From contig JAHFFR010000004.1 in assembly GCA_023247825.1 (NCBI GenBank), forward strand, positions 1 to 54,562: DNA of 54,562 nt. The letters run 5' to 3'. Every line of letters starts with the position of its first letter. The stretch's first letter is position 1. This DNA is from Candidatus Omnitrophota bacterium. GTDB lineage: Bacteria; Omnitrophota; Gorgyraeia; Gygaellales; Profunditerraquicolaceae. Below are positions 493 through 23,860 of this stretch, piece by piece. Below the pieces are notes generated by a model. It searched no databases and was not told the origin of the DNA. It worked only from the letters and a program-made list of their open reading frames with translations. A program made the position numbers and the translations under genes.

Positions 493-498
493 TTTTAA

Positions 499-1374: not shown

Positions 1375-1376
1375 TA

Positions 1377-2678
1377 TTACGCTTTTTTCTTGGCGATCTG
1401 GCGTTCCTTGACCTTCTGGACTTCGCCGGCTACCTGCTCGGGGGTTTTTTCTCCGATAATAATTGACTGGATGCCGCGGTCAAAGGCTTCCGTTACCAGG
1501 GGAAACTCCGAAACCCCCCAGATATTCGGGTGGGTGGCGTAATCCATGCCGCGGGCAAACTGGGCCAGTATTTCAGGAATTTTAGAGAGGCTGTTTTTAT
1601 TGGCGGGCAGATTATTCGTAGCCTGCGCAAGGTATGCCTGCTGGTCCTGACCGGTTAACCAGATTAAAAACTTGACCGCCTCTTCCTTGTTTTTAGAATT
1701 CGCGTTTACCATAAAAGAAGAACCTGCTCCGCCCCAAATAGCCATAGGATATTTATCAGACGCCTGCGGCGGAAGCATCGCCCCGTATTCAAGCGCAGGA
1801 TTCATCCCTTTATAAACATTTACGCACCATGAGCCGTTAAAAGCAAACACCGCTTTTTCATTGGCAAAAAGCTGCTCGGCGCTTTTATTAATCATCGTTA
1901 CCAGGCCTTGAGCCAGGAGGCCGGAATCCTTCATCTGTTTAAATATGGAAAATACCGTAACCCAATCCGGGTCAGTATAGGGGACTTCGCCTTTTATCGT
2001 GGCCAGCACCTTGTCTTTACCCATAATATTAAAGGCATAATTATTTGCCAGGCAGCGGATTAGCCATTCTTCTCCCCATCCGGAAACCAGCCCCTGCATC
2101 CCTGCTGTCCGGATTTTAGCTCCGATATCTAAAAATTCCTGCAGGGTTTTCGGAGGCCGGCCCGGATCTAAGCCCAGCCGGGAAAAAAGTTTTTTATTAT
2201 AGACCATCTGAATGGTCATAACATCTATCGGCACCCCGAATATTCCGGGATTTATCCCGTAGCTATTAGCCGCCGTAAACTCATCTACTGCCAGCGCCTT
2301 GGGAAAAAAACTATTCTTCCAGCTATTATTATTGGCCTCCATATAGGAGGTAAGATCTAAAATGTGATTGGCTTTAATAAAAGAGGCGAAATCCCTCTTT
2401 TCCCCTAAAATGCCAAAAACATCCGGAAGGTTTACGCCTTGCGCAGCCGCGCGGATTTTTTGGGAATAAGCTTCCGAAGGGGCATAAAGCTCAAAATTTA
2501 CTTTTATGCCGGAAAAGGCTTCATATTTCTTTGCTAATTCCTGGAAGGTTGCGTCGCGGTCAGTCATCCAGTGCCAGACGGTAATGATAGGCTTTGAAGC
2601 GTTTTTTTGGCCTGAACAACCTAAAATTGAAAAACACACAAAAATACCCAGAAGCGCGTTCTTAAACAATATCCTCAT
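1377..2678 (-). CDS. Sugar ABC transporter extracellular solute-binding lipoprotein
   Basis: Lipobox ILG-C, ITVWHW N-terminal motif, PDVF, NGSW, family-1 SBP layout; SD GAAGGAG upstream; directly upstream of two permeases. Confidence 0.92.
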   Translation of the reverse strand: MRILFKNALLGIFVCFSILGCSGQKNASKPIITVWHWMTDRDATFQELAKKYEAFSGIKVNFELYAPSEAYSQKIRAAAQGVNLPDVFGILGEKRDFASFIKANHILDLTSYMEANNNSWKNSFFPKALAVDEFTAANSYGINPGIFGVPIDVMTIQMVYNKKLFSRLGLDPGRPPKTLQEFLDIGAKIRTAGMQGLVSGWGEEWLIRCLANNYAFNIMGKDKVLATIKGEVPYTDPDWVTVFSIFKQMKDSGLLAQGLVTMINKSAEQLFANEKAVFAFNGSWCVNVYKGMNPALEYGAMLPPQASDKYPMAIWGGAGSSFMVNANSKNKEEAVKFLIWLTGQDQQAYLAQATNNLPANKNSLSKIPEILAQFARGMDYATHPNIWGVSEFPLVTEAFDRGIQSIIIGEKTPEQVAGEVQKVKERQIAKKKA

Positions 2679-6300: not shown

Positions 6301-9300
6301 TCCTTGCCCGCCAAAATGAGTGCGCGGCCTTTGCGCCCCTGTATTAGCCTCACCTATACAATACTCGCCCACTTTATATATATAATAATCTTTGGCCATT
6401 TTCTTAGCGACCATACCCGCAAGGATATCCATAACATTACCCATATCTTCCCCGTAATCATAGTATCTTCTTGCACCTGTTTTATCAAGGTATGTGGATT
6501 TTTTATATTCTTCCATTATCATCTTTTTAACTTCAGAATTAAACACCAGCCTTCCATATCCTTCGTTTCTGATTATGCCTTTTTTTAATAATTCCGCGGT
6601 TATCTCATTGTTTTTCAATTCATTGAGAGAAATATCCCTGTTTAATTCCGCGCCAAGCTTACGCCTGGTGATTTCCCATAATCCGTTTACGCTCTTATAA
6701 ATATGCTCATTTCTTTGCCGGTAAACTAATTTCCAGAACGGCTGCAGTAAACCTTTATGGCTTTTGACTAAATCCGCGGACTGCATTGCCGCTTGAGGTT
6801 CATCGGTGAACAAATGCCGGCCCTTAATATAGCTTTTATAGCCATCCCGGCCAAGATATTTCGTGCTGGTCAACTCTAAAAGAGTATGATTATCAAAAAC
6901 GTTGATGCCCTCTTTATAAGGATAGCGCCGGGATGAGATTGTTCCCGGCTCAACCTTATTAACCTTGGCCCCGATAAAAATCGGCTTGGCAAGGAATTCA
7001 TTTACTAATTTATCTTCAGATGTATGGTAGAGTATCTCCTCCTTCGGAAAATTATCTGATAAGAACCTCATTACTATTGCCGCCTCTTCAGTTTTTCCGC
7101 CCGCGCAGGCCAAGTCATAGATTGTCTTGGAAGGATTGTTATTATTAGAAGATATCAAGTCTTTAACCTCGCTCCATCCCAGCCCTATTGAAAGCGGGTC
7201 ATACTCCAGAGGTTTTTCATTAATGCTTCTTCTTATCCTATTGTTCTCAATATGAATAGAGGCGAACGCCTCATATCTTTTAAGATTATCCGGCAGGGAT
7301 TGCCCTCTTTCCAATTTATGGATTGCCTCAACTATCTGGAAACCTTCGACTTCAGCTGCCCAAGCTCCTTTCCTCTCATAGATGCCCAAGTTAGCTATAA
7401 AGTTTTCAAAATCGCCGCCCATTGCCTTAAATTCATTCCTATGAAAACCATATTCATTATAAGCGTCCTGATTGACCCCGTATTTTTTAAATTTCTGCTG
7501 TAAAATTTCCGGAGAAGTTTCTTTTGTGATTTTCTCTTTCCGTTCCATCTGATAAATCTTCTGGAAATCCAAAAGTTTTTTTGTATATTTCGAGAGATCC
7601 TGGCCATTATTATTATAATTAAAAGCGGGCAAAGTCATGACCGGAATCAATATAATAGGTTCGCCGACCTTGGCATCAAGAAGTTGGGATGTAATCTTGA
7701 ATATATTATTATGAGATACCAGATTATCTTCTGGATATGCCGAAGGCCTCCCGGTTCTTTCAATGTTTTTGTTTAGAATGTTTTCTCTTCCTAATTCTTG
7801 CTCGAACAAACTAAGCGCGTTATCAAGACCAATGTCTTTTTCTTCTTTTATACCCTGAAGATTTATTGAAAAATCGCCCTGCTGAGAAGGCATAACTTTG
7901 TTCTTGATAAAAGAGGGGCCAAACAAAACCATTCCGGCAGCAGCCGGCTTGCCTAAACCTCCAATGCCTCCGTCCTGCCAACCTTGATAGGAAGCATATA
8001 CGGCTGGTATTCCCACCATTGCTGCCGTAGAAACTGCGGGCACAAAACTTGGATGCGTTACAACTTTATTAATCTGAGGATAATTAGCTAAAGATGAACT
8101 TACCTTCGGTTTAATATTATCAAGAAAAGAACCTGTATTTATTTTAATATCTCCGGCAACTCCTTTTGTCCCTCTGCCACCGCTCCATATAATAAAAGCA
8201 GTACCTAAGCCTCCTCCGATATCTCCAAAATTAGCATGATAATCCGGGCCCGTTGAATATCCAAAATAAGTTGGAATCGGCCCTAAGAAATTATGCGCAA
8301 GGCCGATAAAATCGCCTGTTGATAAACGGTCTATAGTTGACCCCTGGCGCAGCCCAATCGTTTTTTCGGGCATACCTGCCAAGAAACTCGCGATACCATT
8401 CCATCCCTGGGCGGGATCGCTGCCAATTGATGAGCCAATTGAAGGGCCGGTCAAAGGATTAAAAGAAGTTACCATTTTGACAAAACTAGCCGCGTTAGGG
8501 AAACCTAAACTATTTATCCCTCCACTGATTGTTTCTGAAATACCATATCCAATAGCAGGAATTGAAGGTATGGATAAGGAGGTATCTTTATACTTGACCG
8601 TAATATAATCCGGTATAAATAAAACCTTTTCAACAATGTTGACTTTACTTTTTAAGGCAGTGTTTTCATTATTCAACGAAGCTATTTTTGTAAGATCGGA
8701 TAATATCCTCTGATCATCGAACCTGATATCAGGGTATTTACTTTCTAAGAAAACCTTCACATCGTTTTGTGTAGCTGGATTAGCGGAAAATGTGTTTAAT
8801 AAATCACCGACCAGCGCTTCAGATCTTTGGGTATTAAGGCTTCCGAGAGTAAAAGAATTTTGTATTTTGCTAAAATCGTTAGTTAAATCACCAATCTGCC
8901 CATTATTGGAATTATACATTCTAAACTCAGGAGAACTAAAGAATAAACTATAAACGCCCGCGCCCAAAATAGTATATCCTGTATATTTAGCCAATGGCCT
9001 GACAATCCGGTTATCAAACAACAATTTCCTACCTTTGCTAAGATAATCAACACCTTGCTTGAACCCGATATTTTCAGTCAATTTTGTAATGCTGTTGATT
9101 TTTGTAGTATCACTTACTAAATCTGCCTCTCTTGCTATCTTTAATGAATCTCCCGTTATCCCCAAGGTTTTAATTTCTCCACCGCCAACAAATAAAGTAC
9201 CGATAAATCCAAGAGTTTCTTCTGTTGGCTTTACCGAATTATAATAATCTTTCTCTCCATATATTTTAATTTGAGGTTTATCAATATTATTTACTTTAAA

Positions 9301-10089
9301 ATGTCCATATAAGTTGGGAAGATAACTATTACTCTTTATTTTTTGATAAAAATTCCCTTGGCCTATTGCCCACCACTCAAGCCCCGCCAAAGCATCCATT
9401 CCTTCAACAAAACCCGTCAAGCCATGTGCCACACTACCCGCTATCATAACAGCCGGACTCCACAGCGGCAGTGGCTTTGAACGAGTAGTGTCCCCCAAAG
9501 GAATAGTCCTATCGGTAAATTGTTCCGGTCTTAATTTTGCATTAGTTAATTTAGGAACATTATCGAAATTATATACTATTCCATTGTTTAAAGAGGTGCC
9601 GGAAGAAAGCGTATTTTGAGTTGAAAGCGCGGGCAAAGAAGAAATGGAGGAATTTAAGGCTTGAGAACGTACGGGAGATTGTATAGGCGTAGATTGCTGA
9701 GAATACTTCTGAGGATTATTAGCCGGCAAATTCCTGTAGTTATTAATTGCGTTTATGCCTAACTTGCTGACGATAACGCTGGTTGGGGAAGAAATAAAAT
9801 CGCTTGGGGATATTCCAGTAACAGACTTGACTGCGCTATAGACATTAGTTGCGGCGGTATAGGTATTCTGGGCTTTGGAGACGTAAGACTGGGCGGTGGA
9901 ACTATAATATTCGGCCGCAGACTTAATGCTTAATTGACTAGGGGGCCGACCGGATTTAAGATCTTCGATAATCCCGGCGAAACACAACTGCTGAGGCAAA
10001 AAAACAGCCACTACTAATAAGGCAACTGGCCTCATCCAGAGTTTTCCCTGCCAGGCGCTTCTAAATCCTTTTTCTTCTTTCATAAACAA
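3307..10089 (-). CDS. Large exported protein (2,260 aa) with an S/T/N/G-rich N-terminal half and a divergent SecA-like helicase-motor domain
   Basis: N-terminal hydrophobic signal (RPVALLVVAVFLPQQLCFA); SecA-like motifs in colinear order (see domain feature). Start is TTG at 10089 or ATG at 10083. Confidence 0.85.
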   Translation of the reverse strand: MFMKEEKGFRSAWQGKLWMRPVALLVVAVFLPQQLCFAGIIEDLKSGRPPSQLSIKSAAEYYSSTAQSYVSKAQNTYTAATNVYSAVKSVTGISPSDFISSPTSVIVSKLGINAINNYRNLPANNPQKYSQQSTPIQSPVRSQALNSSISSLPALSTQNTLSSGTSLNNGIVYNFDNVPKLTNAKLRPEQFTDRTIPLGDTTRSKPLPLWSPAVMIAGSVAHGLTGFVEGMDALAGLEWWAIGQGNFYQKIKSNSYLPNLYGHFKVNNIDKPQIKIYGEKDYYNSVKPTEETLGFIGTLFVGGGEIKTLGITGDSLKIAREADLVSDTTKINSITKLTENIGFKQGVDYLSKGRKLLFDNRIVRPLAKYTGYTILGAGVYSLFFSSPEFRMYNSNNGQIGDLTNDFSKIQNSFTLGSLNTQRSEALVGDLLNTFSANPATQNDVKVFLESKYPDIRFDDQRILSDLTKIASLNNENTALKSKVNIVEKVLFIPDYITVKYKDTSLSIPSIPAIGYGISETISGGINSLGFPNAASFVKMVTSFNPLTGPSIGSSIGSDPAQGWNGIASFLAGMPEKTIGLRQGSTIDRLSTGDFIGLAHNFLGPIPTYFGYSTGPDYHANFGDIGGGLGTAFIIWSGGRGTKGVAGDIKINTGSFLDNIKPKVSSSLANYPQINKVVTHPSFVPAVSTAAMVGIPAVYASYQGWQDGGIGGLGKPAAAGMVLFGPSFIKNKVMPSQQGDFSINLQGIKEEKDIGLDNALSLFEQELGRENILNKNIERTGRPSAYPEDNLVSHNNIFKITSQLLDAKVGEPIILIPVMTLPAFNYNNNGQDLSKYTKKLLDFQKIYQMERKEKITKETSPEILQQKFKKYGVNQDAYNEYGFHRNEFKAMGGDFENFIANLGIYERKGAWAAEVEGFQIVEAIHKLERGQSLPDNLKRYEAFASIHIENNRIRRSINEKPLEYDPLSIGLGWSEVKDLISSNNNNPSKTIYDLACAGGKTEEAAIVMRFLSDNFPKEEILYHTSEDKLVNEFLAKPIFIGAKVNKVEPGTISSRRYPYKEGINVFDNHTLLELTSTKYLGRDGYKSYIKGRHLFTDEPQAAMQSADLVKSHKGLLQPFWKLVYRQRNEHIYKSVNGLWEITRRKLGAELNRDISLNELKNNEITAELLKKGIIRNEGYGRLVFNSEVKKMIMEEYKKSTYLDKTGARRYYDYGEDMGNVMDILAGMVAKKMAKDYYIYKVGEYCIGEANTGAQRPRTHFGGQGEGALNNLQAQMMAVKHGWDFKSFEEVLMDKTKHAANYVQALEDAKSVSGFSGTAPAYELSFDRLKIPVRQIGRNYNDMVKEKTSVLAKIQPAGDHSPVNDPMAKPKLMAKPKQVTLDKFDIILPDKSISGPKYAGDVKVKYRTSSPKVNKDKTAGDIKEASNAEIIRDDVAADAKTSLRLGSASDAKELNAAYKQSIDWQKQTKLDSDFASKDYKTILPRDIKVNLITYNTVQNIRQISQLPEDLKDKFIEMLLADRGKGSLKIKTRSEALEFITRKPDIALAKLKEFGADLDIINYQQQYIKFITDRKNNPSQKRILWMQGLIEGSNVAAKIAGDESEAKMFLFGLQPEANVLQAGERVGMIPSVARRRMTGEYKWIVRLDDLLLTSKERDALSRAKTEQEAKDILFEASQRLQLEINLQNIYKVKHTDMSPLEAARNVNSFIRKTKWDYKKTGATTVSFDSVFTAMQAMKDEDIGLLKSTFNRWVIPGSNVLNHEGAALFDLAKRLMSLSKEEKIALRNLGFSNINNRLPADGRPSLRQALKIAEFLYQKDLVYFDIDTNEILKGQLGRLVSVGGLINSFGIKVEPEEISYLVNTVKSDFAVYNLIIRKLTTAKPVLSQKLKKQLEPVIEAENKLSRTNQKINSISSAIMRQPKQSFSRNPFSYTSYNLNILKYKISSKFYERRLKKITEIGVKAITLADIDKVSGLSAANFALLLAPNLNEITNEELGAVERVDKFLLSSEINNKVDRNSISLGEIMNLAAGKMSVAEFVATHFRESDIKQYARLIFGYEDALRKHMLSYIQTLNGKVDKNIQSLQEEILAKNLGINFNAQLNLKQLRGLSAAKVSDELLLRIYLGFGVSDEEIEGIILDEQIENTVSQEKIEVSEVLSELAHLIKLKGTGIAIEEVKLKYQNHPEVVNEAVKQLNIATEAIGKIPSLRKFNQFFNERPLITTPVDMSLVRTPAEISALLPEPSSLSAPVDAAILAVKEANKGK
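5100..7150 (-). other. Divergent SecA-like (SF2 DEAD-motor) domain within the 2,260-aa protein
   Basis: Colinear matches to SecA: ACAGGKT (TGEGKT), LYHTSEDKLV (VVTVNDYLA), FTDEPQ (IVDEVD), DYYIYKVGEYCIGEANTG...LQAQMMAVKHG (DYIVKDGEVIIVDEFTG...LHQAIEAKEG), SGFSGTA (AGMTGTA), NVLQAGERVG...GEYKWIVRLDDLL (DNQLRGRAG...GSSRFYLSLEDDL). Confidence 0.7.
5964..5998. repeat. 18-bp-period tandem duplication (GTTTCGGCTTAGCCATG x2), encoding MAKPKL-MAKPKQ
   Basis: Two identical 17-mers at 5964-5980 and 5982-5998. Confidence 0.9.
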
Positions 10090-10139: not shown

Positions 10140-13100
10140 TTAATCTTGAGTTTCAAACTGTGTTTTATCTGTTTTTAATGCTCCGGCTTCTTTTTCAATC
10201 GCTTTGGTTCTTTCAAAGACATCAATTGCTGCTAAACGATCTTCTTTGACCGCACGCACTGCCTGCACATGGTCTCCTGATTTTAGCGCGTAAGCATTCG
10301 TACCTGCGGCAAGCTCGGCAATAGAGACCTCATTCTCCTCGGGCCCGGCTTCTTTAGAGCGATGCGATACAACCCAATCTATGCCATGCTTTTTAGCCAT
10401 CCGGATTACTTCTAAAGTTCCCAAATAGCCTTTTTCCGGATCATCAATACCCGTGGTCAAAAATCCATTCTGATTCAACTTAATCAGGATCGCTAGATTT
10501 TTCGTAACCTTGCCTGTTTCGTCAATAAATCCTCTATCTTTCAGTAATTGAATGAATTTTTGTAACCGGCCGCCTTGAGTCACAAGAAGGTCATCCCCAA
10601 TTAGTAAGGTATCATCCCCGATTGCTCCAATGAGATTCATCCATCCTTCCCAATCGTTTTCGCCTAAACCATCTTCAATAGAATCAATCGGATATTTTTT
10701 AACCCAATCCCCGTATATTTTGACTAATTCTTCCGAAGTTATCTGGCGTCCCTCAAAATTGTAAAGGTTATTATTACCCTCAACTAACATAGAAGTAGAC
10801 GCGGCATCCAACGCCAATGCAGCAGTTCCGGCTTCTCCGGAAGTAGATGGTTCATAACCGGCATTTTGAATAGCGGCTAATAAACAATTTAGAACAAATT
10901 CATGGACACCAACATTTTGTTCTTTTAAAGCGGATATATCCAAATTTTCGATTTTGTAGCTATCCGCATGCGCATAAATGTCCACTAATTTTTCTAAAGT
11001 CAGATCCTCTATTTTATAACCGCCTTCTTTACCACGTAAACTCCCTACGCCCTTATCATCAGGGTCAGCCTTTAAACCCAAGGCCTGATAAATAAGGCCA
11101 AGTTGCCGATCTATCTCATCGCACATCTTGTTTGATTCAGCTGTAGTTTTACCTCTAGCAACAATCATAAATTCCTGCATATCTAAGCTATTGTCAGCGT
11201 GCGCACCACCGTTGGTGATATTATATTGTATCTTAGTAACCGGCACACCTTTAGAGGCAAGATCAGGAGCGAGTTCACGAATGAACTCATAAGGCTGCAA
11301 ACCTTTTTGACTGGCTGCTGCCCAAGCTGCGGCCATCTGAAAAGACAACGTGGCTTCTGCGCCTAATTGGTCTTTACCCATACTCAACATAAGTTGTCCA
11401 ATTTCAACTAATTGATCAGCCCTTAAGCCTTTCTTAGTTACTTCATTTTGAATTTTAACTAAATTCTCAAGAGCCTTTTCGACGCCGACAGTCTTTGCTT
11501 CGTCCTCGCCGGTAGAGGTTCCTGCCGGAACCACAAAATGGCCTTTTGCTCCGCCAGTTAATTCAACATCCAACCTGACTGTAGGAGAACCTAAGGCAGT
11601 AGTTTGAGAAGGAATGATTTTAGCAATGCTTAATGCTTCTTTCTTGCCCACTGCAGTATTTGACAACTTAGAATGTACCCTTGCTGACTCTTTTAATGCC
11701 GCAATAGCAGGACAATCTTCGCCTATCGGGCAGGTTAATGCATCAAGGAATGAGCCGCCATCGGTATACTGGGTGAATTTTCCTTCAACACCCGCTTTCT
11801 TATTGGCTTTTTGGCTATCAGATCCAACAGATACTTTTTCTGCCGCTAATTTCGCTAATCTTTGCTGGAATTCGTTACTACCTTCAGCAAGAAGATCATT
11901 CAGATCAAACGGCCCGACAGGCCCTGATTGTAAGACCAATTTAACGCTCCCGTCTCCAAGGATGTTGAATATTTCCGTAAGCGCTTGGCCATCGAGGTCG
12001 CCAATCACATAACCCTCAGGAATATTCCCGTCCTGAATAGTTAAAATATCCTCTTTTTTTGCCGTCTTTAAATCTTTCACTACCTTTAGAGCCTTGGGAT
12101 AATATATTTCAATGCCTTTAGCTTTTGCTGCCTGGACTACTTCTTTCCACATCTCCAGAGCGTCTTTTTTAATTTCCATTTTTCCGGTAGTTTTTCCTTC
12201 TGCGGCTAAAGGATAGGCGTTAATTGCTCCGGCAACAATTACTTTATCACCTTTAAGCAACACGTTGTTTATCGCGTTCAAAAGCAGTTCTATTTTATCT
12301 TTCTTTAAGCCGGAAACAACAAATGCCGCTGCGCCTTTTTTATGCGCTTCCTCAATTAATGCCCTGACTTTATTAACTCGGCCCACAAATTCAGCTACGT
12401 TTGGCCCGGTAGCTAAAAGTATATATTTACCCGCCGCGGTGATTCGCGCATCAAAACGATGCACGTCTGCGGTGCCAAAATTAAAACCGGTAGGACCAAC
12501 CAGTAACTCCTGCCCGCCGCGATAAAGCATATCTTTTATCGCCGCTTCACGTAATACAGGATCAGCCGTTGGATTTTCACCGGCTGGGTCGCCGGCTTGC
12601 TCGCGTATATCCATTCTGCGATTTTCGGCTATTGCCCAATCACCTGGTTTTAAGTCCTTGATTATTTGGGCGTCCCGAATAATACTTGCTTCATCGGTAT
12701 CCGGTAAGAACCATACTTTGACATCTCCTTTACCCCGGTAATTCTTAATAATCCAATAGCTGGCTTCAATAAACCTTCCATTGGCGTCTTTTTGACCGAT
12801 ATATTCTTCTATACCCTGGCCGTAAACTTGTGCCCTCTGAAAAGCATACCATTTTGCAATACCAAACAAGCCTAGTTTTTCTACATACTTACCCGCAGGC
12901 CTTCCATTATGCCCAAGAATATAAAGCGCATTATTTTTAGAAAGCCTTTCCAGATTATCATAACCTTCAATCAATTTCTTATCCTGCTTATCTGAAACCT
13001 TTTCCCCTTCAATATCACCAACATCCGTGTTTAAAGTAGCATAAACCGGTTTACCGTCAGGAGACTTGAAATCTTCTAATCCTTTATTGGTATACGTAAT

Positions 13101-16100
13101 CACTCCGGCTATAGCGGGTACTTCTGCCTCTTTAGATTCTTTGGCTTTTACGCGTGCGCTCTTAAGCGGAAGCGTGGATTCAATTGCCTGGGAGATTTCG
13201 GCTAACTGCATAACATCATTTACCAACCTTGTTGAAGCTTCTCTCTCATACAAACCGGTAAGCGCGTGGATACCGTTCATATTATTAGGTATAACTATAG
13301 ATTCCTGCGGAACCGCCATCGTAATTTTAACATCTCCGCTGGGTAAGTCTAAAACCTGAACTATCGGTGTAAAAGGATGAATAACCGAAAGTTTATTAAA
13401 TAAAATATCCAGCAGGAGCGTAGCGTCAAATTTATCTTTCTTAAAATCCACTAAAGCTATCCTTGACTCCTCGCTTAAAAATTTCTTCACGGTTTCGGCT
13501 GTTAATCTTTTATCCGTCTTTTTATCAAAACCGCTGATCCACATTTCTGTAATATGGAATTTTGTCAAATGAGTATTACTTGCGTCTGTGGTTAAGGAAG
13601 GTTTATTCTTAGCTCCCTTTCTGAATGCATTGATAATTTCAGAATACGCTTCCCGTCCTTCCAAATAATCTTCAGCGTGATGATAACCTGTCTCTACGGC
13701 AGTGCCATCAGGAGATAATTTGCCTTTTTGACCGGGATCGTTTGCTCTCCGGCCCGTGGTTACCCTTACCACTAAATCCTTACTATTAGCGGTTACCCTA
13801 TCCAAAATAAAACCTTGTCCGGTAGTATTACACGAAGGAAAGAAAAGGCTATTTACTCCTCCCATTATTTTCGAATAAGGAACTTTTAACACATTAAGCG
13901 TGCCGCTGTCAAAAAATTTATTGGCAATCTTAGGATCTTCCGCGCCTTCATACATTATTTTAATGTTTGGATATTTACTATAAATATATTTTGTATTATA
14001 GGCAGCTACCGTTATTTCTTCTTTTGTCTGGGGATCCTCTGTCTCTCCATCGGTAGCATCGGTAATTAAATCTACTTCTCCGCTTTTTAATAGATCTTCC
14101 AGTATACCTTCTGTCCCAACTTTTGCTTTATCAAAAGCCTTTTTATCATCCGGGCTCAATAAATAAAGAGGGATACCAAGGCTTTGGGCGTAGCCGGCTT
14201 TTTCATTGGCAGAACGGTTTACCGTCACAACATTAAATCCCAGCTCGCGGGACTTCTTTGCCACATCGCTGCCAATCGTGCCAAATCCGAATATTAAATG
14301 GGTATATTTTGGCTGGACAATAGCTGACCATCCCCGGGCTGATTTGTTTTTGCTCTTCTTAAAAGTTAACAGTGTCGGCCTGGCACCTTTCTGGGCTAAA
14401 CCGGATTTGAATTCAAATTGGAAAAATTCATCTTTGAGAAGCCCAGTGCCCATCCATCGTTTTATACCAATTAAATTTCCTAAAACAAAATTCTCTTCTA
14501 CGACATTGGGGCTATTTGGCCCTGTCTTTGCCGTAGGGCCTTTTCTGCTTAAGAAAGATTTCAATTTCAATTCTTCACCAGCAACGGTAATTAGCTCTAA
14601 ACCTTTTCCGGTCTTTGTAGTTAATATAGAAGTATATTCCAGTAAGTTAGCATAATATTCATCTTGCATTAGCGAATTATCTTTTAATTCTGCCGAAGGA
14701 ATAGTTATTAATGTCTGGTCGTTAGCATTTTCTTTGGCCAAGGCAAAAATTCTATCGCCTTTCTTTAAGAAAAGATAAGTGTCGCCTTCTTTAGTTTTTT
14801 CTTTGAAAAACTCTTCTAATTTATTATTAGAAACCAAAATATCTTTAGTATATCCAGAGCCCACCTCTTCAGCGGCTTTTGCAACTGTTGTGCCCAAAGA
14901 ATCCGGCGAGAATGTTGACGATGCCCCTGATTGGGTTAACTGCGCCATCCTCGATTTTACAACCGGAACCTGCGGCGTAGAAATAACAATCCGAACTTTG
15001 CTTAAATCTGTACTTTTAAATATTTTTTCGAACTCGGCTAGCGGCTTTAAACCAGTTTCCTGATCTTCGGCTTTCCAGTTCATCCCGATAGTCAGAACTT
15101 TACCCCTCTTTTGGCCCTGTTTTATCGCTTCCTTAATAACTTTACCAATTACCTCGGGATCTTTAGCCGCGCCTCCGATTAAACCGCCATCGAATATGGC
15201 CAGCATTTCCTCCGCGTTTTTAGCATTCAGGCTTCCGCCATAATCTAAATCTAAAACCAGATTATTTTGGAAAATACCGGACGAAGTATCTTTAATAAAC
15301 TTTTTCACATCTTTATTTTCTTGAGCAGAAGGAGTTAAACCGGTGTTAATCGCCCAACGCGGCTCATAAGCTATTCTTAAGCCAATCAGATCAGCATCTT
15401 CTTTTGTTATACCATCTAATATTTGAGTTAAATCCTCGGCCAGTATTTTCTTGGTATTTTCAGACAAATACTTGTCGTAAACTTCTTTTCCTTTTTCCCC
15501 TTTAAAAGTTCTATCCAGAAGATACTGCGCTTTCGTTTCTCCGACACAAAGAACAGTTTGCTTAATCGGGTAACCCTTTGCCTTACTGCGGGCGATTAAA
15601 TCTTTCAACTGCACATTTACAATCTTATTGACGAGGCTACGGGCTAATAATTCAATTTCTTTATCCTGATAATCATCAATCTCATTAACAATTGAATAAA
15701 TTTTTTCCAGATAGGACAAAACTTTATTCTTCTCGTTTTCAGGCAACTTTAACACATCCAGATTTGCCGCTACTTTCAGAGAACTAATGAAATTATTCTG
15801 TATTTTATCTTTTATTGCTTTTGCTTCTTCCTCTTTTTTGGTTAAATAAACAATCCCGGAATCACGCAATATGCTTTTCAGCAAATTTGACATTGACAGT
15901 TCCAGCCGCGCTCGCGGCTCGGAATGGTTATACAACGCGCCGTCAGCTTTATTGAGCATGGCATGCCCAATATTATGGGCGCCGGTATTTGCTCCGTTAA
16001 AAAGCGTGACTTCATTGTCCAACACTAAAATTTGAGGAACTAAGCTAACAGCGGCAGGAATTATTCGTGCCGGAATTGTAGCCGGAGCGGGTTTAACTGG

Positions 16101-17255
16101 AGCAGAAACCGGCGCAGCAGCAACGGCATCATTTAAAACCAGCACGTTACGAGCCTGAACTTCTACCGGAGCCAACTCTTTGAAAGCAGAGGCAAAAACG
16201 GGCCCAAAACCTTTTCCCTGCGTTAATTTTAAAAATGAGCTAAGTGTTTTGGCTTTGACTGCGTCACGAATAAGGCCGTACATAGGCACCTTATTGTCGA
16301 GCCCAATTTCAGAGATGCTCTCAATAGGAGTATTCAGTTTTAAAACAGCGGATGTACCGGCATAGCTGGGATTAGGGCGAAAGATAATTTTTCCATTTTC
16401 TTCTTCAATTAAATATGCATAGCCGTGTTTTTCTTCAATCTTAGCAAAAATAGGTTTGACCTTTGCTGAACCGGGAATACTATTTTTACCCCCCACATCA
16501 TTAGAAATCCAATTAGCCATAACTAAGTAAGTATTCCCTACATTAACTGTGCGGTGGGAATAGCCGGGAAGCAAAACAACCTTATCGCCTGCTTTGGCAA
16601 AAGTAGCTATAACCTCTAATTTACCTTCTTCATTTTTATTTATACTCTGCTGAACATATAGTGCCTCTCCATACATAACTTCATAAATCTCAGGATACGT
16701 ATCGCCTTGGGTTGATACCGGATGTTCATGGCCTTGAGTAGCGTTCAATTGTTTTCCAAAAGATTTTCCCGGAGGCAAAACCGTAATATCATACCTTAGC
16801 CCCAATTCATTTATTTTAGCTTCATCAGCCTTATTGAAAACATCGCGGAATCCGAAATATTGTTTTTGCGGATCGCTAAGAGTATTAATTGAATTTTCGG
16901 GAACAAAACTTATAGCTATATTTTTCTCGTTATAGACTTTTGTCCATTTACCTTCGCTTTTGAATCCTGATGGGAAAGTAAGCTTTCCGGTTTTTTGATT
17001 TATCTGTAAATCAAAACCAGCCCTCTTACTAAAATTAACTAGTTCGCCAAGCACTTCTACTTCGCTTGCATTTTCTAATTCTGCGCTAATTTTTTTAACG
17101 CTATCATCACGTTTTCCATCTGTTGCCGCCGATCTACGCAATTTATCCGAATTAGCATAGCTTCTCACCGGAACGCTTGTAATAATAAAACTTACCGCTA
17201 TAATCCCGGAAATGAGTTTCGAAAATAATGTTTTCTTGGGAAACTGTATAAACAT
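10140..17255 (-). CDS. Signal-peptide-bearing five-enzyme fusion: cupin PGI - permuted TIM - unknown - class II GAPDH - PGK - enolase (2,371 aa)
   Basis: Signal MFIQFPKKTLFSKLISGIIAVSFIITSVPVRSYA, then catalytic motifs of each enzyme in series; SD TAGGAGGAAGG. Confidence 0.92.
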   Translation of the reverse strand: MFIQFPKKTLFSKLISGIIAVSFIITSVPVRSYANSDKLRRSAATDGKRDDSVKKISAELENASEVEVLGELVNFSKRAGFDLQINQKTGKLTFPSGFKSEGKWTKVYNEKNIAISFVPENSINTLSDPQKQYFGFRDVFNKADEAKINELGLRYDITVLPPGKSFGKQLNATQGHEHPVSTQGDTYPEIYEVMYGEALYVQQSINKNEEGKLEVIATFAKAGDKVVLLPGYSHRTVNVGNTYLVMANWISNDVGGKNSIPGSAKVKPIFAKIEEKHGYAYLIEEENGKIIFRPNPSYAGTSAVLKLNTPIESISEIGLDNKVPMYGLIRDAVKAKTLSSFLKLTQGKGFGPVFASAFKELAPVEVQARNVLVLNDAVAAAPVSAPVKPAPATIPARIIPAAVSLVPQILVLDNEVTLFNGANTGAHNIGHAMLNKADGALYNHSEPRARLELSMSNLLKSILRDSGIVYLTKKEEEAKAIKDKIQNNFISSLKVAANLDVLKLPENEKNKVLSYLEKIYSIVNEIDDYQDKEIELLARSLVNKIVNVQLKDLIARSKAKGYPIKQTVLCVGETKAQYLLDRTFKGEKGKEVYDKYLSENTKKILAEDLTQILDGITKEDADLIGLRIAYEPRWAINTGLTPSAQENKDVKKFIKDTSSGIFQNNLVLDLDYGGSLNAKNAEEMLAIFDGGLIGGAAKDPEVIGKVIKEAIKQGQKRGKVLTIGMNWKAEDQETGLKPLAEFEKIFKSTDLSKVRIVISTPQVPVVKSRMAQLTQSGASSTFSPDSLGTTVAKAAEEVGSGYTKDILVSNNKLEEFFKEKTKEGDTYLFLKKGDRIFALAKENANDQTLITIPSAELKDNSLMQDEYYANLLEYTSILTTKTGKGLELITVAGEELKLKSFLSRKGPTAKTGPNSPNVVEENFVLGNLIGIKRWMGTGLLKDEFFQFEFKSGLAQKGARPTLLTFKKSKNKSARGWSAIVQPKYTHLIFGFGTIGSDVAKKSRELGFNVVTVNRSANEKAGYAQSLGIPLYLLSPDDKKAFDKAKVGTEGILEDLLKSGEVDLITDATDGETEDPQTKEEITVAAYNTKYIYSKYPNIKIMYEGAEDPKIANKFFDSGTLNVLKVPYSKIMGGVNSLFFPSCNTTGQGFILDRVTANSKDLVVRVTTGRRANDPGQKGKLSPDGTAVETGYHHAEDYLEGREAYSEIINAFRKGAKNKPSLTTDASNTHLTKFHITEMWISGFDKKTDKRLTAETVKKFLSEESRIALVDFKKDKFDATLLLDILFNKLSVIHPFTPIVQVLDLPSGDVKITMAVPQESIVIPNNMNGIHALTGLYEREASTRLVNDVMQLAEISQAIESTLPLKSARVKAKESKEAEVPAIAGVITYTNKGLEDFKSPDGKPVYATLNTDVGDIEGEKVSDKQDKKLIEGYDNLERLSKNNALYILGHNGRPAGKYVEKLGLFGIAKWYAFQRAQVYGQGIEEYIGQKDANGRFIEASYWIIKNYRGKGDVKVWFLPDTDEASIIRDAQIIKDLKPGDWAIAENRRMDIREQAGDPAGENPTADPVLREAAIKDMLYRGGQELLVGPTGFNFGTADVHRFDARITAAGKYILLATGPNVAEFVGRVNKVRALIEEAHKKGAAAFVVSGLKKDKIELLLNAINNVLLKGDKVIVAGAINAYPLAAEGKTTGKMEIKKDALEMWKEVVQAAKAKGIEIYYPKALKVVKDLKTAKKEDILTIQDGNIPEGYVIGDLDGQALTEIFNILGDGSVKLVLQSGPVGPFDLNDLLAEGSNEFQQRLAKLAAEKVSVGSDSQKANKKAGVEGKFTQYTDGGSFLDALTCPIGEDCPAIAALKESARVHSKLSNTAVGKKEALSIAKIIPSQTTALGSPTVRLDVELTGGAKGHFVVPAGTSTGEDEAKTVGVEKALENLVKIQNEVTKKGLRADQLVEIGQLMLSMGKDQLGAEATLSFQMAAAWAAASQKGLQPYEFIRELAPDLASKGVPVTKIQYNITNGGAHADNSLDMQEFMIVARGKTTAESNKMCDEIDRQLGLIYQALGLKADPDDKGVGSLRGKEGGYKIEDLTLEKLVDIYAHADSYKIENLDISALKEQNVGVHEFVLNCLLAAIQNAGYEPSTSGEAGTAALALDAASTSMLVEGNNNLYNFEGRQITSEELVKIYGDWVKKYPIDSIEDGLGENDWEGWMNLIGAIGDDTLLIGDDLLVTQGGRLQKFIQLLKDRGFIDETGKVTKNLAILIKLNQNGFLTTGIDDPEKGYLGTLEVIRMAKKHGIDWVVSHRSKEAGPEENEVSIAELAAGTNAYALKSGDHVQAVRAVKEDRLAAIDVFERTKAIEKEAGALKTDKTQFETQD
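10200..11640 (-). other. eno: Enolase domain
   Basis: GSPTV, VPAGTSTG, NGGAHADN, QEFMI, KEGGY, LDAAS, SIEDG, GDDL, LIKLNQ, SHRS, LKSG; all catalytic and metal residues are recognisable. Confidence 0.93.
11690..13050 (-). other. pgk: Phosphoglycerate kinase domain (divergent)
   Basis: LNTDV, GHNGRP, ENRRM, FGTADVHR, SGLKKDK, SGPVGPFD, GSDS, TDGGSFL are colinear with PGK motifs but several are substituted. Confidence 0.82.
13190..14310 (-). other. gap: Class II (archaeal-type) phosphorylating GAPDH domain
   Basis: GFGTIG, LITDAT, YEGAE, catalytic SCNTT, RRANDP, HH, QESIVIPNN: the class II signature rather than class I. Confidence 0.88.
14950..16040 (-). other. tpiA: Triosephosphate isomerase domain, circularly permuted, with a helical insertion
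   Basis: GANTG, HSE, VLCVGET, IAYEPRWAINTG, YGGS, LIGGA, followed by the normally N-terminal GMNWK segment. Confidence 0.88.
16350..16900 (-). other. pgi: Cupin-type (archaeal-type) glucose-6-phosphate isomerase domain
   Basis: TQGHEH...YPEIYEV.YGEA...LPGYSHRTVNVG...NPSY; metal ligands H-x-H, E and H are present. Confidence 0.85.
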
Positions 17256-17286: not shown

Positions 17287-20200
17287 CTACCCGCTGATGC
17301 CTACGGCTTCAAGGGCTATTTCGTATTTTTCCTGCAATTGGGCTACTTCCTCAATCGCCTTTATCGATGGAATCACGGATATCTGCCCACTTAAATCAAG
17401 AAGTTGATTATATTTATTTTTATCGGCAATCTGCATAGTTTGTTGTTCGATAAAATCATTATATCTTTCCACCACCGTGGATTCCTTCTGAAAAATACGC
17501 GCAGTTGCTTTAGCAAAAACAATGGACATTGGATTAATTTTGGCTTCTCCATTCTTTATGGTTTCTTCAGTTACATTTGGCGCATCTACGGTCACTGCTC
17601 TTAAACCGGGGTTTAACCCAACCGCTTTAGATACCTCATCTTGCAGTTCTATCTTAGAAGTTATTATCATAATCCGGTCAAAACCAATCCCGTATCCGGT
17701 GTTTAATTTCTCCAACGCGGCATCAACTCCTATTATGATAATATCTGCCAAGTTCCCAAGGCGTATAATTTTGTCCAATTCAGATTTATCTTTTGCGTAC
17801 ACTGCGATTTTAAATTCAGGATTTACCCCTTTCCATTCTTTAAGCGCAGCAATGCTTCCTGCATTTTCAATAATTACACCTGCTTTTATAAGCAAGGCGC
17901 CTTTACCGCCTTCATCTTTATCTTTTAAATCTTTTACTGCTCCCACCACATCAGCATAACCTGTCCCGAAGTTATTATGGGACTTAGTATCCGCATAAAA
18001 AACTTTGTTAAATGCATAAACATTTTGTATTGTATTTGTTGGATTTTCAGTTAAATAAAGGGTTACGCCATATTCTGCAGCGGCAGTTTTAGTTACCGGG
18101 ATAGTTACAGCAGCTAAAGATTTATCCACGTCTTTATCGGTAATCAGTTCCGCGTTTATATTATCCCATTCTGTGCCTCTTTTTGCCTCAGCTAACTCCC
18201 TTTTTGCTTCCCTATCTAAAAGCAGAAAACTAACTCCTCTTTCTTTAGCGAGATAATAATCGTAAGCGAAAATATTATTGGGGCTATTAATAACCATTCC
18301 CAAAGGAAGGCCCGTTATCCCCAATTCATTCAGAAGAGAACGCGTATCATCGATTTCAGATGGCTCGCGTACCTTGGATAAAGCAAGCGCGATATTATCA
18401 AAGCCTTCATCTCTCAATTCCTTAATCGCCTCTAACTCCCACAGAAAGATATTCTTATCGGGATTAAGCACCTTTTTCATTCCGCGATTGCCTAAATCAG
18501 GGTTTGGCTCTTTGGGTAATTCGTATCTTTCTCCGCCTAATTTAAGCTTAAGATAATCACCGGGTTCTTTAGAGGTTTCAATAATAAACTTCTCGCCTCT
18601 GGCTCTTGCTTCTGAAGCCTGCTGCCTCCAGTATTTCTTTAAAGATGCAACATAGAATTTTTTTCCTGCGTCAACTTGGCTGATATCTGCGCCTACACCC
18701 TCCAAATAACCCTCAACTGTTTTTCTTAAGGCAATACTCGATAGATTGTATTCCGCATCTTTTATTTCCTTGTTAATCCCCTGGATTTTAGTTGCTATCG
18801 CATCCAGTCCCTTTTCTATCTCTTCGCCATCCGTCTTTGATTGTTCCTTAAGCTGGTCAAATTCTGCTTTATATTGTTTATTTTGTGCCTTTAACTTGGC
18901 AATCTTTTCATAAAGGCTATTTTCTGAATCAGTAACAAACAAATCGCCTTTTGATCCCTTATCATATTCAGCAAAAAGCTGATAATGAAACGGGAGCTGT
19001 AAATGAAACGCCGAAATTGAACCCTTAGCAAAAGCTGTCTTAATATCCGGCTTGGCACCGGGATTTATTTGCTTGTATATCTCAAAGTCCCTGTTATCCA
19101 GAACCAATTTCAGGAAAGGAAGCATATCCACCAGATTTTTAGGCAGCCCCTCCTGTTTAGATTTATCGGCTATCAATTCATACAGGCTATTAACCAATGC
19201 TTCCTTATTCTCCGGCTCATTTAGTAATCCTGATTCATCGTGGCCAAGAAGATGGTTGAGCAACGTATAAAGATCATTGGTAGTCCTGTCTATGCTCGGG
19301 ATAGTAATAGAAGCAGAATCATACCCCAACAGATAAAGCACCAACGCTCCGGCTGGGTCAACTGCCGGCCAGTTACCGCAAAAACCAATAGTAAATGGCT
19401 TAAGCCCTTTGGGAATTCTTACTTCCTGGTTATACCTTTTAATCGTATTAACCAAACTAATCAGGGCGCGTATACTCTGGATGCTGCGTTCGCTGATGCT
19501 ATTAAAATATACCGCGGCATTTTGTCTATCTACTTCAAAGTTAAACTGGGTCAAATCATTGGAACCAACCGAACCAAAATCTATACCTGCCTCCAAAAGA
19601 TCCCATAATTCCACGGATTGAGGTGTTTCAATCATACTTCCACGCAGGATACGGTCTGAGGTCAAACCGGACTCATCGCAAATTTTATTCATTTGCTCTA
19701 CATGTCCAGCATCATAAACCATCGGCGCAAAAATCCCTATCCTGAATTTTCCCGGTCCAATAGGATTACCGTTTTCATCGCGGCGCGCCCCTAAATCCAC
19801 TACTTTTTTTATTGCCTTCAACTGCATACGTGTGACTTTAGGATTATCCACAAAGCTGTTAATTCCCCGATAGCCAGCCATCGAGTTTCTGCTTTTCTTT
19901 TTCGCGGAACCGGGAATCTTATCATATTCATCATCTTTAAGGTCATCTAAACGGAACAAGAATACTCCGTAAAAATGCCGCCTGATCATATCAGTAACTT
20001 TAATATCTTTTTTAGAAACTTTATCTTTATAAGATTTAATTAGCTCTTCTGTCTTCTTAAGAAGCTCGTTGGTGGATAGGGCGCCTTCTGCCTCATCAAA
20101 TGTCTGTTTATACGCATCGGCAATATCCAACAAGTTCTTTCTTAATTCGACATCCTGAATACTCTGTGCCAATTCAAGTATCTCTAACGGCTCTACTACC

Positions 20201-23200
20201 AAAGAGTTAACCACCGACTTAATACCTCCGGACATCAGGTTAACATACCTCTCTTCTCCCAATAAATACCCTTTAGTCATTTCATCGAATATTTTGATTA
20301 ACTTAAGGTCCGCGGGATTCTGCGTATCATAACGCGGATTCTGCGCATCTTCTATATAAGCCTTATAAAATTCAAGCCCGGTTCCATAAACACGCTCTTT
20401 ACCATCAATAAATACGCTGATAGTATTACCTTTATTTATATTGGGCTTAAGATACTCAGTGTCGCCTTTATACTTGAGCATTTTGTTTAAGAGCATCTTT
20501 TCAGCAAGGCTCGCCTGGCCCTTATCCAATTTTTCTATCAAAGTGTATATTTTATAAGCGTCATACCTTAGCAGGCCTTCTCCGGCGGCTCCGATTAAAT
20601 CGGCAAGGAATAATTCAAGCCGGCCTAAACCCACTCTATAAAAATCAGGCTTGTTGCGGAAAGCCCTTGCCTTATGGGCAAGCTGCGTGGAATTAATATT
20701 CAAGCCTATATAAAAATCTGAAGGCAATATACCTAAATCCTTAACATTATAACTTCTACCGGCATCAACCAAATCATAATCCCAGCCGTCTAAAATAAGC
20801 CCTGCTTCGGCATCAACGGTAACCTTACGGCCGTCCCATAATTTATCGAGATTGCCTATGCCGCTTATAGCAATAAGGCCGTATTCGGTAGCTACAATCA
20901 TGGTATGAGAATTTCTCCCGCCAACTGCCGCGATTACTGCCAAAGCCTCTTTCATAATTTCGTTCATGTCGGGATCGCTCTGCATAGTCGCCATGATCCT
21001 GCCTACTGTTTTACCCCAAGTTTCCGGATGCTCCTTATCCACAATATATATTCTTCCCTTTACAGCTCCTTGGGTATGCGCCTGAGGATTCTCATATAAA
21101 ACCTTTCCTCCTGCTCTTGCCTTCTTTATTGAATCTTCTGTTACCTGCTTATAATTTAACTCAATGATATTGGGATCCATAAAATTGAACTTGGTTTCCG
21201 GCCTAATCTGGGTCATAAACTGAATATATTGATAACGCGGCTTGCCTAAATGATCCTTGGCAATACCGTCAGGTTCAGAAAGATCTTCAACAAAGACTGG
21301 ATTCCCAAGCTTATCTCTTCTTATAATTAATCCTCCCTCCATGTCGCTAAACATACCGAAAGAATTGCTTAAGGTGGTAAGAGCGCGGCCGATATTAGTA
21401 AGTAAAAGTCTATCACTTACCGCGGGGGTACCTTTTAATTCAGAGGGAAAAGGTAAAATAAAGACCCCTTTATCCATTTCGCCGCTTTTTAGCTTTTCTT
21501 TTAAAGTATTTATATCAAACATTATCCCTGGAACATGCCAAGTGCTGCTGCCTTCTTCAGGGGCTTTATAACGCCTATGAGGTTTACTGCCTTGAAGCTC
21601 CACATAAAATAAATCTCCGGTGCCGTTGCCGGAAACAAGGGGATTCGTTTGTCCTTTTATTATTTCTCCTTCAATTTCCGCATATCCTGATGCCCGATTT
21701 ACTGAAAACGCCACAAATCCGAATTCGGTCAAAGCCATCTGCTGGAATAACGAGCTCATAGCCGCTTTTTCCGTAAATATGGGAATTTTCATTTCCAGCC
21801 TATACTCTATGGAACGCTCATTGAATAAAGACCTCTGATTAGCCAGCCATTCTTTGATAAAAATCTCATACATATCATCATTTAATTCCTGCTCTCCCAC
21901 TTCCTGACGTAATCTGTTCAGGATATCATACCAGGGAAAAACTTCCTTACTTAACTGTTCCCAAGTATATCCGAATCTTTCAGGAGTTGTATCAATCTTC
22001 TTAAATAGTTCCCTTAAATACGACACGAACAAAGACGTATCCTGCCTTCCGGCAAAAGAAGCTGTTTCGCTGTCTTCGCCTACCGCGGAACTTCGTATAG
22101 CCAACATCAACTGGTATATGGGTACGCCTAAACTCTTTGCCAATATATCCAAGTTGTCTCTTATCTCTTTGGCTAATTGCGGAGGGATCTCGGCTTTTCC
22201 CCAATCCAGGCTATCCTGAAAGTTAGCCGCGATTCTTGCAACCAAATCCTTTTTTTCCTGGACATATCGGCTTTTACGCGCGTCAAAAGCATCCTGTTTA
22301 CCTTGAAGATACTTTATATCTTCGTTATATTCTTTTTCCATCTTAGCTAAAGTATTCACAAGCTCTTTATCATATTCGGTAAATTTGCCCTTTAAATTAT
22401 TGTATTCTACCAGATCCATAAAACAGCGCCCGGCAGTAGCAAACATCTGCATAGTGATCGCACCAGGCAACCACTGCATCATGCCCGTATAAGCGGTCTT
22501 TCCGCCGAATAATGAGGTATCACGGTCACTGACAATATAATCCGGAATTATATTACGCCCCTGTATCAAACTCGCATCGGCTAAATGTTCTCCGCTTAAC
22601 CTGAAAACAGGCGGTTTCTTTTTATCTTTTGCATCTATTTCCATTACTACTTCCGAAACATGACTTTCAAGAATCTTTCTTAAATCCTTTTCCGCTTCCA
22701 AAGCAGTTACCTTAGCCCAATAGCCAAGCTTCTTGCCATCCCCAATCTCTGCCTTTTCTAATAATTCAGCTGCCTTACGACCGTCAAGTCCGCGATTCCG
22801 TTCCATAACATCGATTAAAAAATACTGCCTCTCTGCCGCGGTCAGCTTCCGCGCTCCTTCAGTGCGCGATAAACGGTTAACCTCTTTTATAAGATTAAAA
22901 ATATATATCGCGTCCTCCAAACGGTTTTTACCCGTAAGGCTTACCTGGGCAATCCTATTCATTATTTTCTCTGCTTCTTCCTGAGAGATATTCTTATCAC
23001 TTAATTGAATCGCCGCTGCAGCAAAAAGCCCCATGCCAACGCGTTTCTGTCCACCCTGCATAAGATAATCTAAGAAATCTTTCTCTATTTTTATGGTTCT
23101 TGTAGCTTTATCCGCGCTAAAATGCTTGTCGCCTAAAGTACCGGAAGGGACTAATAGAACTTTTGAGTTGGCAATAACATCACTTATCCATTTAAATTCT

Positions 23201-23751: not shown

Positions 23752-23860
23752 TTTCCCTCCGTATTAGTTTGAATGTAGTTTTTTGCTGATTTAGATTTAT
23801 TAAATTATGAAGGCATTTTTTGTTCTTATTATGCGCCATATTGATTTTATTCTTTGTACC

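Follow-up and report, generated by a model that had tools for sequence, protein, structure and literature searches.

Does an open reading frame (ORF) in which five enzymes of central carbon metabolism are joined in one chain encode a real protein, and on which side of the cell envelope would such a protein act? The question is raised by a locus of a Candidatus Omnitrophota bacterium on contig C64, here called the window (the whole stretch of DNA that was analysed, 54,562 nucleotides (nt) long). The source genome has 1.41 Mb in 85 contigs and is ~90% complete, and the closest database relatives of the window are all labelled Candidatus Omnitrophota. On the minus strand, positions 10140..17255 are open throughout in the ORF translation (2,371 codons), and a strong ribosome-binding site, AGGAGG, is placed 9-14 nt 5' of the ATG. 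A sequence-only reading of this DNA had proposed one uninterrupted ORF of 2,371 amino acids (aa) holding five central-carbon enzymes, and both points were confirmed: Pfam recognises glucose-6-phosphate isomerase (PGI), triosephosphate isomerase (TIM), phosphoglycerate kinase (PGK) and enolase, and NCBIfam gives a match to type II glyceraldehyde-3-phosphate dehydrogenase (GAPDH). The Pro/Ala-rich linker that had been noticed after PGI, AAAPVSAPVKPAPATIPA, is present at residues 380-397, and the unnamed segment reported between TIM and GAPDH, here called domain X, comprises about 200 residues (781-980) without a relative in Pfam or the Protein Data Bank (PDB). We consider it very probable that the ORF encodes a real multi-enzyme protein, namely a catalytic, accessory fusion that is tagged by an N-terminal leader.

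The matches above the Pfam gathering cut-offs are GPI/cupin PGI (residues 131-256), TIM (593-709), PGK (1529-1840), Enolase_N (1889-1992) and Enolase_C (2116-2344), while the NCBIfam match to type II GAPDH spans residues 987-1354. All the NCBIfam equivalog scores of this ORF fall below their cut-offs, which indicates that the domains are divergent. The module boundaries given in Table 1 were set by the pieces that travel together in homologues.

The PGI module (PF06560, 87.8 bits against a cut-off of 20.7) carries the metal ligands GHEH...EIY at 175 and SHRTVN at 233, which align with those of 1j3p, and its nearest relatives in the PDB are the cupin PGIs of Thermococcus and Pyrococcus. The PGK module (PF00162, 83.2 bits against 27), whose best PDB match is the Thermotoga maritima PGK 1vpe, keeps the motifs HNGRP, ENRRM, ADVHR and GPVGPF, and its Gly-rich loops are partly altered (GGG to DGG and GGGD to GSDS). 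For enolase both PF03952 and PF00113 are above cut-off and TIGR01060 is below it (206 against 300); alignment with PDB structures shows that the metal ligands (D246, E295, D320) and the acid/base residues (E211, K345, H373, K396) are all present, and the motifs found are GTSTG, NGGAHADNSLDMQEFM, KEGGY, ALDAA, SIEDG, GDDLLVT, IKLNQ, SHRS and LKSGD. The GAPDH module scores below cut-off with NF003251 (103 bits against 185) and with TIGR01546 (58 against 233). Its PDB matches are archaeal GAPDHs only, and its SCNTT catalytic motif at 1141 aligns with 2czc, so it can be described as a putative divergent relative of the type II family.

The TIM module has the residues of the enzyme in an unusual order. 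NHSEPR is found at 443, YEPRWAI at 630, YGGS at 672, LIGGAA at 692 and GMNWK at 724, an order that is permuted with respect to the canonical beta1-to-beta8 succession: the part corresponding to beta3-beta8, with a helical insert of ~100 residues, comes first, and the beta1-beta2 part (GMNWK at 724, VRIVISTP) comes last. The Pfam match (PF00121) is limited to profile positions 127-244, and HMMER aligned the MNWK-bearing tail to TIM residues 7-54 as a weak match. An AlphaFold model of this part has eight strands at a predicted local distance difference test (pLDDT) score of ~85. Foldseek searches with it returned TIMs only, with ~170 of 250 columns aligned, which is the outcome expected from a sequential aligner on a permuted barrel. 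Native and "de-permuted" versions of the module scored alike in phmmer against the genome's own TIM, the sensitivity of a single sequence being too low. The module is therefore best read as a circularly permuted TIM, with the fold and the residues of the enzyme and a topology other than the canonical one.

Codon comparison with the orthologues in the related loci L003 and L004 gave dN/dS values of 0.05-0.07 for GAPDH, 0.08 for PGK, 0.15-0.20 for TIM, 0.18 for PGI, 0.17 for enolase, 0.15-0.24 for domain X and 0.16 for the leader. The Pro/Ala-rich linker has a value of 0.55 and 31% identity to its orthologue. Every module, including the leader, is thus under purifying selection and the linker is unconstrained.

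An assembly artefact would turn the ORF, chiefly its PGK-enolase join, into a chimera of two strains or loci, or would mask a sequencing error. What favours this explanation is the distribution of the join, which was found in this genome only and is absent from the closest relatives, whose enolase is encoded separately from PGK. In L004, the nearest enolase-bearing relative, PGK is followed by a 25-residue tail and a stop, and 14 nt further on there begins a separate ORF of 877 aa, in which a leader of its own is followed by another permuted TIM-like module and by enolase. In the window the PGK tail, the stop, the spacer, the leader and the second permuted TIM (~375 residues) are missing and the frame is kept. 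A join that stays in frame and cleanly drops a leader and one module argues against an artefact, and so does the identical sequence of a separately assembled MEGAHIT contig in the European Nucleotide Archive (17,879 bp, not the length of the contig studied here, and possibly from the same sample), which shows 100% identity across 10,355 bp including the whole ORF. None of the 21-mers of the ORF recurs elsewhere in the genome, so there is no repeat available for mis-joining. Moreover, independent PGK-enolase fusions exist in G179 (TIM-PGK-enolase) and in the proteins P0006, P0008 and P0009. An artefact is in our opinion extremely unlikely. When the same architecture was sought in other genomes, the part from the leader through PGK was recovered and the last join was not: P0002-P0005, which come from other assemblies and are 69-77% identical, are collinear over leader-(PGI)-TIM-X-GAPDH-PGK, and the PGK-enolase join is confined to this lineage.

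The five-enzyme ORF is part of a gene cluster (Table 1) whose order on the minus strand is a giant ORF of >7,166 aa, the methyltransferase-phosphoglycerate mutase ORF, the 535-aa protein, fructose 1,6-bisphosphate (FBP) aldolase/phosphatase, pyruvate,phosphate dikinase (PPDK), the five-enzyme ORF, the 2,260-aa protein and the ABC transporter. The four enzyme ORFs jointly cover every step from pyruvate to glucose-6-phosphate (PPDK, enolase, cofactor-independent phosphoglycerate mutase (iPGM), PGK, GAPDH, TIM, FBP aldolase/phosphatase and PGI). Leaderless enzymes are encoded elsewhere in the genome, namely a gap-pgk-tpi operon (C29), enolase (C13), PPDK and phosphofructokinase (PFK; C50), phosphoglycerate mutase (C9) and a PGI fragment at a contig edge (C73), which makes the cluster a second, accessory set. 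The frame of the cluster recurs, with a protein of 510-535 aa first, followed by enzyme ORFs, a protein like that of 2,260 aa and a sugar ABC transporter.

Table 1. Modules of the five-enzyme ORF and neighbouring genes in the window
Feature	Residues	Positions	Strand	Basis or remark
Whole ORF P0001: leader, PGI, permuted TIM, X, GAPDH, PGK, enolase		10140..17255	-	2,371 codons
Leader	1-45	17121..17255	-	Lys-rich n-region, 17-residue uncharged h-region, S-Y-A, then D-K-L-R-R-S-A-A-T
N-domain and cupin-type PGI	46-375	16131..17120	-	PF06560, metal ligands present
Pro/Ala-rich flexible linker	376-398	16062..16130	-	Sequence
Circularly permuted TIM	399-780	14916..16061	-	Pfam, motifs, model
Domain X	781-980	14316..14915	-	No Pfam or PDB relative
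GAPDH, putative type II (archaeal-type)	981-1360	13176..14315	-	NF003251; SCNTT at 1141
PGK	1400-1862	11670..13058	-	PF00162, motifs
PGK-enolase junction	1863-1875	11631..11669	-	Comparison with L004
Enolase	1876-2350	10206..11630	-	PF03952 and PF00113, metal and acid/base residues
ABC transporter, carbohydrate/UgpB-like: binding lipoprotein and two permeases		1..2678	-	Same position in L003, L055
2,260-aa signal-peptide protein without recognisable domain, downstream		3307..10089	-	Syntenic in L003, L004, L053
2,154-aa leader-bearing ORF with PPDK, upstream		17287..23751	-	31-nt gap to five-enzyme ORF
1,019-aa leader-bearing ORF, bifunctional FBP aldolase/phosphatase		23921..26980	-	
535-aa conserved signal-peptide protein, first gene of such clusters		27014..28621	-	
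1,148-aa leader-bearing ORF: methyltransferase and (permuted) iPGM		28801..32172	-	

A homologous leader is present on the four enzyme ORFs and was found nowhere else in the genome. In the five-enzyme ORF it has K7, K8 and K13, an uncharged span of 17 residues and an S-Y-A site, and each of six cluster ORFs has one N-terminal hydrophobic segment and no other. Among 12 aligned leaders, from paralogues and distant relatives, Met1, the predicted -1 Ala and the Arg of the following L-R are invariant, and the conserved motif behind the leader is [D/N]-x-L-R-x-x-[A/S]-A. In every case the n-flank, with a net charge of +2 to +6, is more basic than what follows the ~17-residue span. In a rule-based reading these features predict a cleavable Sec-type signal peptide in N-in/C-out orientation, and export of the chains is predicted with it. 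The proposal that the fusion serves as one export substrate agrees with the presence of the leader on each separately translated enzyme ORF and on none of the internal modules, the export itself being predicted from sequence features. The sequence-only reading further suggested, as a conjecture, that fusion would fix the stoichiometry of the enzymes and that their natural oligomers (TIM and enolase dimers, GAPDH tetramer) would cross-link the chains into a large assembly. The leader of enolase is present on the separate ORF of L004 and absent where enolase is fused behind PGK here.

The leader profile was matched over its full length in 8 of the 60 genomes from this family, in each case on 1-4 clustered ORFs of 1,000-3,300 aa. 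The cargo of the leader-bearing ORFs in relatives always consists of enzymes of the Embden-Meyerhof-Parnas (EMP) pathway, and the order, the number per chain and the type of enzyme vary. These include TIM-GAPDH(type I)-PGK, PPDK and class II aldolase with a GlpX fructose bisphosphatase (FBPase) in G127; PFK-...-GAPDH-PGK and PPDK in G321; aldolase-PFK-GAPDH, PPDK and TIM-PGK-enolase in G179; PGK-TIM, PPDK and aldolase-PFK-GAPDH in G326; and aldolase-cupin PGI-PFK-PPDK (3,298 aa) and TIM-GAPDH-PGK in G236. Chains hold 2-5 enzymes, and the five-enzyme chain of the present ORF is the longest among those compared. Pathway order, which the sequence-only reading had noticed for TIM-GAPDH-PGK, exists in this ORF and is not conserved, since relatives have PGK-TIM, fructose-bisphosphate aldolase (FBA)-PFK-GAPDH and FBA-PGI-PFK-PPDK. 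The interconversion of FBP and fructose 6-phosphate has three unrelated solutions across the genomes (FBP aldolase/phosphatase, GlpX with class II aldolase, and pyrophosphate (PPi)-type PFK), a pattern that is difficult to account for without selection on the reactions themselves. The fusion is evolutionarily fluid: modules are gained, lost, permuted and swapped for non-homologous enzymes, and the leader and the pathway theme are conserved.

The PFK modules in the leader-bearing fusions (L054:976-6027, L056:7120-12699) contain GGDD and in one case PKTMDND, which, by the residues that set PFK specificity, we take to be the signature of a PPi-dependent, reversible PFK. The presence of this PFK type in relatives fits the ever-present PPDK. 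The TIM-X-GAPDH segment, wherever present, lies within open frames of 800-3,000 aa. In P0010, P0012 and P0013 the same divergent enolase module is joined to transaldolase, transketolase, aminotransferase and class II aldolase. A scan of metagenomes with the family alignment gave two distant cupin loci only, the patterns being too degenerate.

How could these chains be used? In the reading that we favour, to which as a whole, export included, we assign a probability of roughly 0.45, each chain, directed by its leader, would pass the Sec translocon of the cytoplasmic membrane as a single unfolded substrate, and the L-R motif would then serve a second sorting or processing step. The enzymes would act where ATP/ADP, PPi and NAD(P)H occur, and would there interconvert C3 and C6 sugar phosphates. 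For an attached, host-dependent nanobacterium the most plausible place would be the host or prey cell, either its interface or its interior. The fusion would be a packaging device, each chain needing a single address label. The FBP aldolase/phosphatase would make the route gluconeogenic in this genome, and in relatives either direction would be possible.

Several observations weigh against this reading. A K-L-R-R just after the predicted cleavage site is unusual for efficient Sec export in E. coli, and to our knowledge the periplasm does not supply the ATP/ADP, NAD(P)H and PPi that PGK, GAPDH and PPDK need. The TIM-X-GAPDH segment has a patchy distribution: it was found in 13 of the 401 Omnitrophota genomes that were sampled and, within the genus, in 2 of 16 genomes. 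The direction of flux is not conserved either, and the idea that the family is always gluconeogenic was rejected on account of the relatives with PPi-type PFK. Finally, West-Roberts et al. warn that localisation is possibly mispredicted (10.1101/2023.11.21.568195).

The cofactor logic favours the cytoplasm, and one may thus think of a membrane-tethered cytoplasmic metabolon, in which the leader would be an uncleaved anchor that holds the chain on the cytoplasmic face by the sugar ABC transporter, where it would channel imported sugar or C3 compounds. A sugar ABC transporter is indeed syntenic in the window, L003 and L055, a 2026 preprint (10.64898/2026.06.07.730766) describes about half of the long Omnitrophota proteins as inner-membrane-anchored with cytoplasmic domains, and West-Roberts et al. 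caution about overlooked topology (10.1101/2023.11.21.568195). We nevertheless find the metabolon doubtful: the n-flank of +2 to +6, always above the C-flank, predicts C-out; the hydrophobic span, with its ~17 residues, its helix-breaking Pro and the small residue that never varies at -1, has the hallmarks of a cleaved signal peptide and not of an anchor; and a full leaderless cytoplasmic pathway is already present in the genome. It has also to be asked whether the modules are catalytic at all. Surface-displayed enolase, GAPDH, PGK and TIM are well known as adhesins in other bacteria, and the chains might be "moonlighting" adhesins or sugar-phosphate-binding modules of a giant-protein coat, giant Omnitrophota proteins having been proposed as adhesins (PMC10066038). 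This is very unlikely in view of the catalytic and metal-binding motifs kept in all five modules and in relatives, the dN/dS values down to 0.05-0.08 and the pathway-completeness of the cluster; the filling of the FBP step by three unrelated enzymes likewise argues for selection on the reaction and not on a surface.

Two further proposals concern the fate of an exported chain. It could be a true polyprotein from which cleavage after export, perhaps by the 535-aa protein, releases the free enzymes, so that fusion would serve delivery only. The flexible Pro/Ala-rich linker and the short linkers between modules, the partner with a signal peptide and invariant His/Glu motifs, and the autocatalytic processing of giant proteins proposed by West-Roberts et al. 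speak for it. A recurrent junction motif was not seen in this ORF, Pfam finds no protease domain in the chain and the model of the 535-aa protein has no significant structural match to any protease, so that we regard this as an improbable outcome; proteolytic processing is compatible with either location. The other proposal is that the chains are effectors of a "portable metabolism", i.e. a self-contained EMP/gluconeogenic pathway exported as giant fusions into a host, a prey or a sealed contact compartment, with the L-R motif as the second-step delivery signal. They might then convert the C3 pool, ATP and reducing power of the victim into hexose phosphate for the adjacent ABC transporter, or collapse its energy metabolism by ATP-wasting futile cycles (PPDK against pyruvate kinase, FBPase against PFK). 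So specific a version of the export reading is unlikely in our estimation.

The neighbouring genes and some relatives of the locus have features of their own. The 535-aa protein, always the first gene of the leader-ORF clusters, has the invariant motifs QDAHxN, VEGG and GGFHT. Proteins of this kind form at least 228 sequence clusters, which come from Omnitrophota without exception and are annotated as "hypothetical" throughout. The AlphaFold2 (AF2) model of the 535-aa protein has a pLDDT of 89, yet Foldseek gave no significant match and a profile search against the PDB was empty. The weak, non-significant Foldseek matches (probability 0.1-0.35) were to Tiki/TraB/erythromycin-esterase/ChaN-like folds and HopBA1, so that a putative Tiki/TraB/erythromycin-esterase-like hydrolase is a lead only. 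The head of the 2,260-aa protein is rich in S, T and Q, and the protein also has hydrophobic patches rich in Gly. A "SecA-like motor" was not found in it by Pfam, phmmer or a three-sequence profile against the PDB, a search of which structure comparison was not part. A C-terminal domain common to the three other fusions was not found, phmmer giving no similarity at E <= 0.01. A promoter/terminator scan of the region gave no sites above chance; the best sigma-70-like match (TTGACA-16-TATACT, 11/12) is at 28733-28760 (-), just 5' of the 535-aa ORF, and a G+C-rich hairpin lies in the 169-nt gap 23752-23920, after the FBP aldolase/phosphatase ORF.

In the iPGM ORF an S-adenosylmethionine (SAM) methyltransferase is fused in front, and the two halves of the metalloenzyme domain stand in reverse order, the C-terminal one at residues 411-617 and the N-terminal one at 638-872; this order suggests that the cluster has a second case of circular permutation. 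A related 1,459-aa ORF of another locus, L005:8828-13207 (+), has Enolase_C (449-750) ahead of Enolase_N (781-911), and its enolase may be permuted as well. At the edge of a related enzyme cluster, L004:21991-23061 encodes a DDE transposase (DUF772/DDE_Tnp_1); together with the patchiness within the genus this suggests that the locus is mobile or hypervariable.

Domain X had no match in Pfam or the PDB by sequence or by profile search, and its AF2 model is of low confidence (pLDDT 40-55). Of 1.84 billion representative proteins only 21 were found to contain it, almost all of them 1,000-4,100 aa long, and it is confined to long multi-enzyme proteins. In one relative (3,298 aa) it stands ahead of PPDK instead of GAPDH, which indicates that X is a free module among these long proteins.

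If the leaders do export the chains, core ATP- and NAD-linked sugar chemistry would take place outside the bacterial cytoplasm, the parasitic or predatory lifestyle of Omnitrophota would have to be understood differently and a new class of effectors would be at hand. The locus is also a natural experiment in enzyme fusion, in which modules are freely reshuffled, circular permutation is seen two or three times and enzymes of a single pathway are replaced by non-orthologous ones, and it offers ready-made designs for synthetic metabolons. With four ORFs and one leader it is a compact and testable case for deciding whether the metabolic domains of Omnitrophota megaproteins lie inside or outside the cell.

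Glycolytic domains inside giant proteins of Omnitrophota are already in print. West-Roberts et al. 2023 (10.1101/2023.11.21.568195) reported that the giant proteins which they call "Archaeovorins" contain domains of TIM, PGI, FBPase, phosphohexomutase, aldolase and PPDK and predicted these to lie outside the cell, and the 2026 preprint (10.64898/2026.06.07.730766) distinguishes a "multi-enzyme metabolic" class of giant proteins, most of which bear a signal peptide or transmembrane (TM) segments. As to the earlier remark that no five-enzyme bacterial fusion was known, neither preprint describes a defined chain comparable to the present one. Both are also silent on the leader motif that the ORFs share, on the permutation of TIM and on the parallel leaderless pathway. 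The likeness lies in the same phylum and the same enzyme domains in very long proteins with signal peptide or TM segments, the present cluster being directly downstream of the >7,166-aa ORF. The difference is that here the enzymes are spread over four ORFs of 1,000-2,400 aa with one leader each and no further TM segment, which are pathway-complete; an Archaeovorin is a single ORF that runs to tens of thousands of residues and has numerous TM helices, whereas the five-enzyme ORF has 2,371 aa and one hydrophobic segment.

The nearest bacterial fusion is the PGK-TIM of Thermotoga maritima (PMC7729029; NF010569), likewise a covalent fusion of two enzymes consecutive in the pathway. It differs in being cytoplasmic and leaderless, with PGK before TIM and two enzymes only, and the present ORF scores 128 bits against the NF010569 cut-off of 883, its order being TIM...PGK with X and GAPDH in between. 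The cluster also resembles archaeal gluconeogenesis: its cupin PGI, putative type II GAPDH and FBP aldolase/phosphatase belong to mainly archaeal families and keep the catalytic residues. Its versions are however very divergent (the archaeal-type enzymes have E values of 1e-9 and 7e-5 to the nearest structures), fused, leader-tagged and mixed with bacterial-type TIM, PGK, enolase and iPGM. An archaeal origin of the whole pathway was rejected, given that only PGI, GAPDH and FBP aldolase/phosphatase are of archaeal type.

The TPI-GAPDH fusions of stramenopiles (PMC3527533, PMC6198282) are eukaryotic, imported into mitochondria and limited to two enzymes, with type I GAPDH and unpermuted TIM, and their localisation was shown experimentally, whereas here it is predicted from sequence. 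They share with the present locus a second copy of C3 glycolysis under an N-terminal targeting peptide, TIM before GAPDH, and one signal for more than one enzyme, in their case two. With its mitochondrial presequence, the stramenopile TPI-GAPDH is the nearest conceptual analogue of the chain described here.

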